From an uncultured Candidatus Rokubacteria bacterium (lineage in GTDB: Bacteria > Methylomirabilota > Methylomirabilia > Rokubacteriales > DASRDR01), in the NCBI GenBank assembly GCA_963765195.1, contig CAVXVV010000088.1, positions 358,529-422,528 on the forward strand: a stretch of 64,000 nucleotides of DNA, read 5' to 3'. The notes under the pieces are model-generated. The model searched no databases. It was not told the DNA's origin and worked only from the letters and a program-made list of their open reading frames with translations. The position numbers and the translations under genes are program-made. This document shows, piece by piece, positions 43,491 through 45,816 of the stretch (positions are counted from its first letter, which is position 1; every line of letters begins with the position of its first letter).

Positions 43491-43815
43491 TCATCCTCGA
43501 CACGCTCTTGGTCGGGGGCATCAAGTTCGTGCTGGGCAAGATCGCGGCCGCCGTCGAGGCCGAGATGGCCGACGACACGGTGTGGCGCGAGGAGCTCCTG
43601 GCCGCCCAGATGCGCCTCGAGCTCGGCGAGATCACGCGAGGAGCAGTTCGCGGCGACCGAGCGCGAGCTCCTGGCCCCGGATCCGCGAGATCCGCGAGCG
43701 CCAGCAGGGGCGCGCGGAGCCGCCGGGGACCTTCCGGGTGACGGGCGTCGAGGCGAGCGTGCTGGGCGATGACGCCTCCGGTGAGGGCCGCGAACCGGAC
43801 GTCTCGTCCCGGTGA
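43487..43815 (+). CDS. gvpG: gas vesicle protein GvpG (two apparent frameshifts)
   Basis: GTG overlaps the gvpF stop as GTGA. MIILDTLLVGGIKFVLGKIAAAVEAEMADDTVWREELLAAQMRLELGEI matches GvpG (MFILDDL...). The sense continues via the +2 frame (REEQFAATERELLA) and then the +1 frame (IREIRERQQGRAE...), with indels at ACGCGAGGAG and GGCCCCGG. Confidence 0.6.
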
Positions 43816-45816
43816 GACGGTCCGTCCCCGAGCGCCGGACGCCCTTCTTCGAGTTCGTCGGCGGCAAGGGCGGGGTCGGCAAGACCACCGCCGCGGCCGC
43901 CCTGGCGCTGGGGGCCGCCGGCGCCGGCCGCCGAACGCTCGTCGTGTCCACCGATCCGGCGCACTCCCTGGGTGACGTGCTCGCGCGACGGGTGGGAGCG
44001 CGCCTGACGCGCGTCCCGAGCCCTGGCGCGGCGCTCGATGCGCTCGAGCTCGACGCCGATCGGGCCCTGGCCCGTTGGCTCCGAGCCCGCAGCCGTCCTC
44101 TGCGTCTCATCGCGGAGCGAGGCACCTATCTGGACGAGGCCGACGTCGACCGCTTCCTCGGCCTGAGCTTCCCCGGCGTGGACGAGCTGGGCGGCCTCCT
44201 CGAGCTCACGGGCGTTGCGGAGGCCGGCCGCTACGACACGGTCGTCGTCGACACGGCGCCCACCGGGCACACGCTCCGGCTCCTGGCCGTGCCCGAGACG
44301 CTGGGCCGGATCGCCACGGTGCTCGACGAGATGCTCGCCAAGCACCACTTCCTCCTGACGCGGCTCGGGGGCGCGGACCGGCGCGACGCGGCAGACCACC
44401 TCGTGGCCGAGATCGACGCCGAGGCTCGCCGGCTGGCCGCGCTCCTCCGCGACCCCTGCCGCAGCCGCTTCCGCTGGATGGTCCTGCCGGAGATGCTGGC
44501 CGTCGAGGAGGCCCAGGACGCCGTCCAAGCCCTCGAGGGCGGCGGCCTCGCGGTCGACGAGATCCTCGTGAATCGCGTGGCCGGGATCGGCAAGACCGGG
44601 AGGACCGTCGACCGCCGTCGAGTCGCGGCCGAGCAGCGCGCCGTCGCGGCCGTTCGGAAGGCCTTCGGCGGCCGTCCCATCCGGCTCCTGCCCGAGCTGG
44701 CCGCGGAGCCCCGCGGGCTCGCCGGCCTTCGGCCGCTCGTCCGGGCCCTGAGCCAGCGCGGCCCGGCAAGCGTGCGCCTCGGGCCCGCGCCGGCGGCGTC
44801 CTCTCCCCTCCGTTCCTCGACGGCACGAGGCCGCGAGTCTGCTGCCGTGTGGGTGCCGCTCGTCGCCCCGGCCGGCACCCGCCTGCTCCTGTTCGCGGGC
44901 AAGGGCGGGGTCGGCAAGACGACGTGCGCTGCCGCGGCGGCGCTCACGGTCGGCGACGGGGCGCCGGCCCGACGCATCCTGCTCTTGTCCACAGACCCCG
45001 CCCACTCGCTTGGCGACGTCCTCGGCGCCCGGGTCGGCGACGAGGAGCAGCCGGTGCCGGGCGGCCCGGCCACTCTCGGCGTCCGCGAGCTGGATGCCGG
45101 CCGCATGTTCGCGCGGCGGCGGGAGCGCTACCGGACCGCGGTCGACGAGCTGTTCGACGCGATCCGCGGGGATTCCCGGCTCGACGTCGCGTTCGACCGC
45201 GCGGTCGCGCGCGACCTGCTCGACCTCGCGCCGGGCGGCCTGGACGAGCTGTGCGCCCTTCTGGCCGTGACGGAGGCGCTGTTCCCGCCGGCCGCGGACG
45301 GCGGCCCGCCATGATCTGGTCGTCGTGGACACCGCGCCGACCGGGCACACGCTCCGGCTGCTCGCGCTGCCCGGGCTTGCCCTGGAGTGGGTGCGCGCGC
45401 TCCTGGCGACGCTGCTCAAGTACCGCCAGGTGCTCGGGCTCGGCGCGCTGGCCGAGGATCTCCTCGAACTCTCGCGCGGTCTCCGACAGCTCCAGGCGCT
45501 CCTCACCGATCCCCGCCAGGCTCGCGTGGTCGTGGTCACCCGGCCGGCCGCCCTGCCCCGCCTGGAGACCGTCCGGCTCCTGCGCCGGCTCGAGGCGCTG
45601 GGGCTCACCGTCTCGGCGCTGGTCGTGAACGCGCTCGCGCCGCCCGGCGTCCATGGCTCGCGCGCCGAGGCCGTGGAGCTCGCGCGGCTGCGGGCAGCCG
45701 CGCGGCGCCGGCGGGGGCGCGTGCCGCTGCTCCTCGCGCCGGTCGTCGCGCCCCCGCCGCGCGGGGTGCCGGCGCTCCGCGGCTGGGCGCAGACCTGGAC
45801 CCGGGCCGCCTCGTGA
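43812..45816 (+). CDS. tandem-duplicated ArsA/GET3-family anion-transporting-type ATPase (frameshift near 45300)
   Basis: Two P-loops (FVGGKGGVGKTTAAAALAL...STDPAHSL and FAGKGGVGKTTCAAAAALTV...STDPAHSL). Each is followed by a signature segment (VVVDTAPTGHTLRLLAVPE; then, in the +2 frame after GGCCCGCC, HDLVVVDTAPTGHTLRLLALPGL). The start overlaps the gvpG stop as GTGA, and the stop overlaps the next gvpF/L start. Confidence 0.75.

Follow-up and report, generated by a model that had tools for sequence, protein, structure and literature searches.

A tandem Get3/ArsA-family ATPase encoded within a gas vesicle operon of a Rokubacteria contig: a likely accessory factor rather than an arsenite pump

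Within a 64,000-nt stretch of contig CAVXVV010000088.1, from an uncultured Candidatus Rokubacteria bacterium (this whole stretch is the window hereafter; its G+C content is about 71% and all coordinates are window positions), a gas vesicle (gvp) operon contains the gene of a tandem ATPase of the Get3/ArsA family (43812–45816, + strand; 667 aa without an extra A at 45298), here designated arsA. The reading that we favor, with moderate confidence and in part by analogy with Get3 and ArsA, is that arsA encodes an intact, selectively maintained ATPase of a gvp-associated clade, which is not an arsenite pump and probably acts as an accessory ATP-driven clamp or chaperone for a hydrophobic Gvp protein.

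By score, motifs, and fold, the window protein belongs to the TRC40/GET3/ArsA family. Pfam ArsA_ATPase (PF02374) matches it over two stretches (E = 3.8e-90; 302.6 bits, for a cut-off of 24.3), and TIGR00345 (GET3_arsA_TRC40) gives 326 bits (cut-off 135). A preliminary description of this DNA, made from its letters alone, had recognized two complete nucleotide-binding halves of ArsA/GET3 type, and both halves indeed carry the deviant Walker A motif GKGGVGKT, the STDPAHS motif, and the switch II motif DTAPTGHT, all invariant or at least 90% conserved among 87 homologues. In the corrected protein, these regions read GGKGGVGKTT, STDPAHSL, and DTAPTGHTLRLL in the N-terminal half, and AGKGGVGKTT, STDPAHSL, and DTAPTGHTLRLL in the C-terminal half. 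The N-terminal P-loop (residues 17–26; 43860–43889) is at least 90% conserved in our alignment A2, where D147, T148, A149, P150, G152, and H153 of the following switch II (DTAPTGH, residues 147–153; 44250–44270) are invariant and T151 is at least 90% conserved. In the C-terminal half, the same alignment shows invariant G363–G368, with K369 and T370 at least 90% conserved, in the P-loop (residues 362–371; 44895–44924), and invariant D506, A508, P509, T510, G511, and H512, with T507 at least 90% conserved, in switch II (DTAPTGH, residues 506–512; 45328–45348).

The closest sequence match in the PDB is the tandem ARSA1 of Chlamydomonas, a targeting factor for tail-anchored proteins (5zme, 3.8e-51), followed by archaeal TRC40 (3zq6) and then by Escherichia coli ArsA (1f48, 5.9e-37). 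The preliminary description had called for structural modeling against Get3 and ArsA, and this comparison was made with P0001, a 97%-identical homologue standing in for the window protein. Its AlphaFold2 (AF2) model (predicted local distance difference test [pLDDT] 83.9; predicted TM-score [pTM] 0.87) is a closed pseudo-dimer with predicted helical subdomains, whose halves are joined by a low-confidence Ala/Pro/Ser/Arg linker at about residues 315–345 (44754–44846; pLDDT below 50 at 319–343). In Foldseek searches, the whole chain of this model was best matched by the closed, ATP/arsenite-bound ArsA of L. ferriphilum (9nbw/9nbo, target TM-score [TMt] 0.78–0.80; E = 5.7e-31 to 9nbw), and each half by archaeal TRC40 (3zq6, TMt 0.82–0.84). 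At the position of the Cys113 motif of ArsA, the protein has the Get3-type PG[VL]DE (PGVDE and PGGLDE in the window). Moreover, a CxxC motif occurs at the zinc position of Get3 in both halves of 61 of the 87 homologues and in neither half of 24, with only two discordant cases (alignments A1 and A2); this coupled presence fits a putative single four-cysteine site bridging the halves. The helical subdomains also carry clade-specific motifs, RGT[YFL]LD, KHR[FY][LM], FDRE, and LLKY, which differ between the two halves, and NCBIfam has no model dedicated to this gvp-linked clade.

The gene is part of a compact + strand operon (39.2–47.9 kb) with the order gvpA-gvpA-HK-RR-gvpF-gvpG-arsA-gvpL-gvpJ-gvpF-gvpK, in which HK and RR denote a histidine kinase and a response regulator. 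The GTG start of arsA at 43812 overlaps the TGA at 43813–43815 that ends gvpG (43487–43815; corrected product 108 aa, Pfam GvpG 1.8e-12), and its own TGA at 45814–45816 overlaps the GTG at 45813 that starts the second gvpL/F copy (45813–46649; Pfam GvpL_GvpF 6.8e-47), again as GTGA. Both overlaps had been reported in the preliminary description. The downstream one stands as described; the upstream one is real as well, but the TGA becomes the gvpG stop only after correction of two single-base insertions in gvpG (43637 and 43678) that had been missed. The tight coupling to the gvp genes that was claimed from these overlaps is likewise correct insofar as arsA is an integral, closely packed operon member, but it is not peculiar to arsA, nearly all junctions of the operon being abutting or overlapping. 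Co-transcription of arsA and its translational coupling with gvpG and gvpL form part of the best explanation of this arrangement.

The same arrangement recurs well outside Methylomirabilota. An ArsA-seeded scan in which each species was represented by a single genome gave 80 loci; two context loci brought the number analyzed to 82. The scanned loci came from Methylomirabilota, Acidobacteriota (many classes), Myxococcota, Gemmatimonadota, Planctomycetota, Desulfobacterota, Proteobacteria, Chloroflexota, Verrucomicrobiota, Spirochaetota, Hydrogenedentes, and Cyanobacteria. The preliminary description had named linkage of related genes to arsenic resistance without gvp neighbors as evidence that would tell against its proposal; at least two gvp families lie beside the ArsA homologue in 70 of the 82 loci. 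The usual order is F-G-ArsA-(L)-J-(F)-K, while the genes outside the gvpA...gvpK module are lineage-specific. In the search for ArsA genes adjacent to gvp genes that had been proposed, gvpG was the immediate upstream neighbor in 61 of 75 loci, and in 33 of 53 the ArsA P-loop starts no more than 90 nt from where gvpG stops. A second, gvpK-seeded scan of metagenomes, which removes the ascertainment bias for ArsA, yielded 18 loci in which gvpK is preceded by more than 3 kb of sequence, and 12 of these contain ArsA.

The idea of a chaperone is a reasonable one by analogy, and its steps can be proposed as follows. Binding of ATP would close the two halves, as in Get3 and ArsA, and the helical subdomains bearing the clade-specific motifs would hold a hydrophobic gas vesicle protein. 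Candidate clients are the N-terminal helix of GvpG (Kyte-Doolittle mean over 19 residues [KD19] 1.74) or a hairpin of the GvpA/J fold (KD19 up to 1.85). Hydrolysis of ATP would then release the client to the GvpF/L/K assembly machinery, so that assembly would be improved by ArsA without strictly depending on it. How the highly hydrophobic GvpA-type proteins are kept soluble and inserted into the shell is also a limiting question where gas vesicles are to be engineered into acoustic reporters; the Get3-like ATPase found beside gvpG in more than 10 phyla is a concrete candidate for this handling step and a possible helper in heterologous expression.

Several observations weigh against this proposal. 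No tail-anchored protein or C-terminal transmembrane segment is found among the operon proteins, the top 19-residue Kyte-Doolittle mean, that of the GvpA-fold hairpin, being below classical transmembrane values; nor does the conserved module contain partner genes of the Get1/2 or Get4/5 type. The window protein has 0.7% Met, unlike the Met-rich groove of Get3, and the conserved helical-subdomain motifs are polar or aromatic and not those expected of a generic greasy groove, which also argues against the classic Get3 mechanism. Both CxxC motifs have been lost in the window protein (about residues 262–268 and 613–620) and its subclade, as well as in Gemmatimonadota and many Thermoanaerobaculia. 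The searched literature holds no report of gas vesicles in Rokubacteria. Finally, the remaining six of the 18 gvpK-seeded loci (L086, L121, L123, L137, L141, and L158) are collinear clusters without ArsA, with a gvpG–gvpL gap of 21–387 bp. Five have the order A-A-HK-RR-F-G-L-J-F-K (the short L123 contig begins at gvpF), and L137 has A-A-F-G-L-J-F-K, without the HK-RR pair. In a GvpF tree, five of these six loci group in one clade; the ArsA-less clusters appear there as a single tight clade and two isolated loci, with ArsA-bearing clusters around them. The existence of such collinear clusters indicates that this cluster type often includes ArsA but can dispense with it, and, given that clusters are retained without it, what it contributes may be minor or depend on conditions.

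A more specific version of the chaperone reading is tentative, and in our judgment rather improbable as a whole. It supposes that the gvp-linked tandem Get3/ArsA protein is a dedicated ATP-driven delivery system for aggregation-prone GvpA/J-fold proteins or GvpG to the growing gas vesicle, that is, a Get3-type targeting toward an organelle instead of a lipid membrane, and that it partly replaces the work of GvpN in soil phyla.

The claim of the preliminary description that the ATPase stands "in place of GvpN" holds only loosely. Searching with tblastn and five GvpN seeds (E ≤ 1e-5), we found no GvpN homologue in the 64-kb window. GvpN is also absent within 6–10 kb flanks from 37 of the 44 full-flank ArsA-bearing gvp loci (present in 7) and from all 18 gvpK-seeded loci, although these counts cover locus flanks and GvpN may be encoded elsewhere in those genomes. 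Because ArsA and GvpN are both ATPases of gvp clusters, and GvpN is thought to power an assembly step, ArsA could be envisaged as a functional substitute performing an ATP-dependent step of shell growth in the clusters that lack gvpN. We regard this as unlikely. The two proteins occur together in 12 scanned loci, with the order A-N-F-G-ArsA-J-K, all in a more distant ArsA clade and distributed among Proteobacteria, Desulfobacterota, Chloroflexota, Verrucomicrobiota, Spirochaetota, and Hydrogenedentes; both are likewise present in the clusters of Bacteroidetes/Chlorobi, Geobacter, and cyanobacteria described previously (Castillo and Saier 2010; PMC2963123). Conversely, the six collinear clusters without ArsA have neither. 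Their folds and oligomeric logic are unrelated, the AAA_5/MoxR-like GvpN being an AAA+ ring protein and ArsA a SIMIBI dimer, and the window ArsA-like protein has no match to AAA_5 (PF07728). Their positions differ too, since GvpN lies upstream of gvpF and ArsA downstream of gvpG, and in the clade of the window the slot of GvpN between gvpA and gvpF is held by the HK-RR pair. The window ArsA thus does not take the position of GvpN, nor is it an obligatory substitute for it.

In the window, the pair found in this slot consists of a PAS/HisKA/HATPase_c histidine kinase (Pfam; 39933–42074, +) and a receiver-only response regulator (42074–42526, +; Pfam Response_reg 6.2e-27), whose start shares 1 nt with the stop of the kinase gene. 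The pair (39933–42526) is kept at this position in 26 GvpN-less genome loci from several phyla, in one GvpN-containing locus (L042), and in soil metagenome contigs. As for other ATPases, eight loci of the ArsA clade that contains GvpN (L019, L021, L026, L028, L035, L036, L042, and L048) have, in addition, a gene for a double AAA+ ATPase that is CDC48-like and about 720 aa long; seven of them carry GvpN, whereas L026 has none within its flanks, so that a cluster can hold up to three ATPases. Cyanobacterial ArsA homologues outside gvp clusters (L063, L068, and L078) likewise have a similar CDC48-like gene within a few kb.

Membership of the SIMIBI superfamily raises another possibility, namely that the protein is a ParA/MinD-like ATPase governing how gas vesicles are spaced or clustered within the cell, and not a chaperone. 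Proteins of this kind share the deviant Walker A motif, and weak Pfam and NCBIfam matches to CbiA, ParA, and MinD are found. These matches, however, span just about 30–40 residues at the P-loop, whereas the full-length homology and the fold, helical subdomains included, are specifically those of ArsA/Get3, and the conserved module has no gene for an McdB- or ParB-like adaptor. We therefore consider a positioning role very unlikely.

The favored reading also takes the gene to be intact, which the assembled sequence at first sight contradicts. As assembled, arsA is split into open reading frames at 43812–45314 (500 aa) and 45325–45816 lying in different frames, and gvpG passes through all three reading frames; with one arsA and two gvpG frameshifts within about 1.7 kb, arsA could be a decaying pseudogene in a degenerating gvp cluster. 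The comparison with L083, an ENA contig 97.4% identical to the window over an alignment of 21.6 kb (34188–55803), speaks strongly against this. The preliminary description had correctly located the arsA frameshift within 45290–45320: it is due to the single extra A at 45298, which is absent from L083, as are the extra bases at 43637 and 43678 in gvpG, and L083 is in frame at all three sites. The frame breaks of L083 itself lie in other places (the kinase, the regulator, and another site in arsA), and the alignment of 21.6 kb contains 65 indel events, many within genes of either contig, a pattern that fits assembly error. Removal of one base restores the 667-aa frame, with no further stops. Without the A at 45298, arsA reads ...PPAAAAARHDLVVVDTAPTGH..., near P0001, and the corrected reading around this position, ...PPAAAAARHDLVVV, matches ...PPAAAATRHDLVVV in P0001. 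The latter, encoded in a separate assembly from JGI, is an uninterrupted protein of 667 aa whose gene has 4-nt overlaps with both neighbors. P0093 (500 aa, 98% identical) has a frameshift that differs from that of the window and does not represent the window gene itself. The three frameshifts are thus best regarded as assembly errors, because they are absent from L083 and P0001 is intact. The ratio of nonsynonymous to synonymous substitution rates (dN/dS) of arsA is 0.29–0.34 against three relatives, a range similar to that of gvpF/L/K; this value of about 0.3, together with the intact P0001, indicates a gene that is functional in the population and makes decay highly improbable. More generally, 65 indels between near-identical contigs mean that any frameshift or pseudogene call in the window needs confirmation at the read level. 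Two apparent fusions, GvpG with ArsA (P0046) and ArsA with GvpL/F (P0038), were considered as signs of a physical link and rejected, since out-of-frame Arg-rich junk at their junctions identifies them as long-read frameshift artefacts.

That the window protein is a true arsenical pump-driving ArsA lying by chance among gvp genes, as the annotation "arsenite-transporting ATPase" of homologues in source records and the overall ArsA-like fold might suggest, can practically be dismissed: it scores far under the cut-offs of the ArsA equivalog models (179.9 bits for 650 with TIGR04291; 196 for 800 with NF041417), the phmmer alignment to 1f48 places no Cys at the As(III)-binding positions of E. coli ArsA (Cys113, Cys172, and Cys422; the whole window protein has three Cys), ArsB, Acr3, ArsC, ArsD, and ArsR were not found among the approximately 40 window open reading frames scanned with Pfam, and synteny with gvp genes is kept in more than 10 phyla.

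A recent insertion of arsA into the operon was also considered. The preliminary description had named flanking repeats and atypical G+C content or codon usage as signs of such an event, and neither was found. No direct or inverted repeats flank arsA, the sole notable repeats being internal ones, with a spacing of 1035–1078 nt, that correspond to its two duplicated halves; its G+C content at third codon positions (GC3) is 0.92–0.93, like that of its neighbors and of the rest of the window. Together with the synteny across phyla and the gvp-like dN/dS, these data rule out a recent insertion. The total G+C content does rise to 76–81% at 44000–48000 (arsA, gvpL2, gvpF3, and gvpK). This rise comes from codon positions 1 and 2 (Ala 16–22%, Arg 13–20%), GC3 being typical, and it is common to gvpL2, gvpF3, and gvpK, so that we rejected it as a sign of insertion.

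Contrary to the preliminary description, in which the association was believed not to have been described, the link between gvp genes and ArsA has been known since 2010, and the window protein is a Methylomirabilota-type example of a known and experimentally unexplored class. Two-domain ArsA homologues were reported inside gvp operons of four phyla, in Bacteroidetes/Chlorobi, Geobacter, cyanobacteria, and an acidobacterium (Castillo and Saier 2010, Int J Microbiol 2010:187373); these authors noted that the arsenic cysteines are missing from the gvp-linked homologues, for which they proposed a role in energizing gas vesicle biogenesis alongside GvpN. Members of their Clusters 4 and 6 have two domains and about 640 aa, and lie in gvp operons with gvpF/L, G, J, and K, without arsR or arsB. 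With 667 aa, two PF02374 stretches, a position within a gvp operon, and no ars genes found, the window protein fits this class, and the acidobacterial example was listed without gvpN, as in the window. The window system differs from those described by being Methylomirabilota-like, by its embedded HK/RR pair, and by belonging to a subclade without both CxxC motifs. In Nodularia, "ArsA" (nsp15480) directly follows gvpW (nsp15470). We found no experimental follow-up of gvp-linked ArsA and no gas vesicle paper naming Get3, and Hurt et al. (2023) do not mention an ATPase of the ArsA/Get3 kind; further literature hits for "arsA" were unrelated or came from reference lists. To the earlier report, in which the Get3-type CxxC pair, the conserved gvpG-arsA coupling, and the ArsA-less collinear clusters do not figure, our survey adds the breadth across phyla, this coupling, the paired CxxC motifs, and the evidence for accessory status.

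Among characterized systems, Get3/TRC40 and the tandem chloroplast and cyanobacterial ARSA1 (5zme/5zmf, 3zq6, and 2woj) share with the window protein GKGGVGKT, STDPAHS, DTAPTGHT, PG[VIL]DE, and helical subdomains; ARSA1 too forms a pseudo-dimer by fusion, and the CxxC at the zinc position of Get3 is common to most gvp-linked family members. The differences lie in the operon, which lacks both a tail-anchored client and a Get1/2 or Get4/5 partner, in the Met-poor composition of the protein, in its different and asymmetric helical-subdomain motifs, and in a context that is a protein-shelled organelle and not a membrane. ArsA (E. coli R773, 1f48; L. ferriphilum, 9nbo) is a tandem pseudo-dimer too, and its closed form provides the best whole-chain structural match, but the As(III) cysteine triad, an equivalog-level score, and, among the open reading frames scanned, nearby ars genes are all missing from the window case.

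The remaining genes of the operon, all on the + strand, are readily assigned with Pfam. Two gvpA-family genes open it, at 39237–39590 (Gas_vesicle 9.1e-16; the start is uncertain, GTG at 39237 or 39243) and 39594–39929 (Gas_vesicle 9.3e-17). The first gvpF/L copy follows the response regulator (42531–43490; GvpL_GvpF 2.1e-75). Downstream of the second copy lie a gvpJ/S-like gene of the GvpA fold (46613–46861; Gas_vesicle 9.2e-13), whose start was placed by analogy with the gene calls of L083 and of the P0001 contig, the third gvpF/L copy (46858–47550; GvpL_GvpF 1.2e-30), and gvpK (47541–47903; GvpK 4.4e-31), the final gene of the conserved module. Convergent to gvpK is the gene of a MEDS-domain protein (47947–49059, −), which is kept there only in close Rokubacteria relatives (L001, L002/L015, L004, and L083) and may be a lineage-specific sensor. 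The module is flanked by genes for a Pup ligase (35550–36941, −) and an MlaC lipid-transport protein (49265–49888, −); pupylation and a diderm-type Mla system fit the Methylomirabilota assignment suggested by named homologues. About 7 kb upstream of the operon, an encapsulin shell protein (Linocin_M18, 2.2e-56; 31394–32404), followed by an M48 peptidase (32438–33316), constitutes another compartment system with a protein shell in the neighborhood of the gvp operon.

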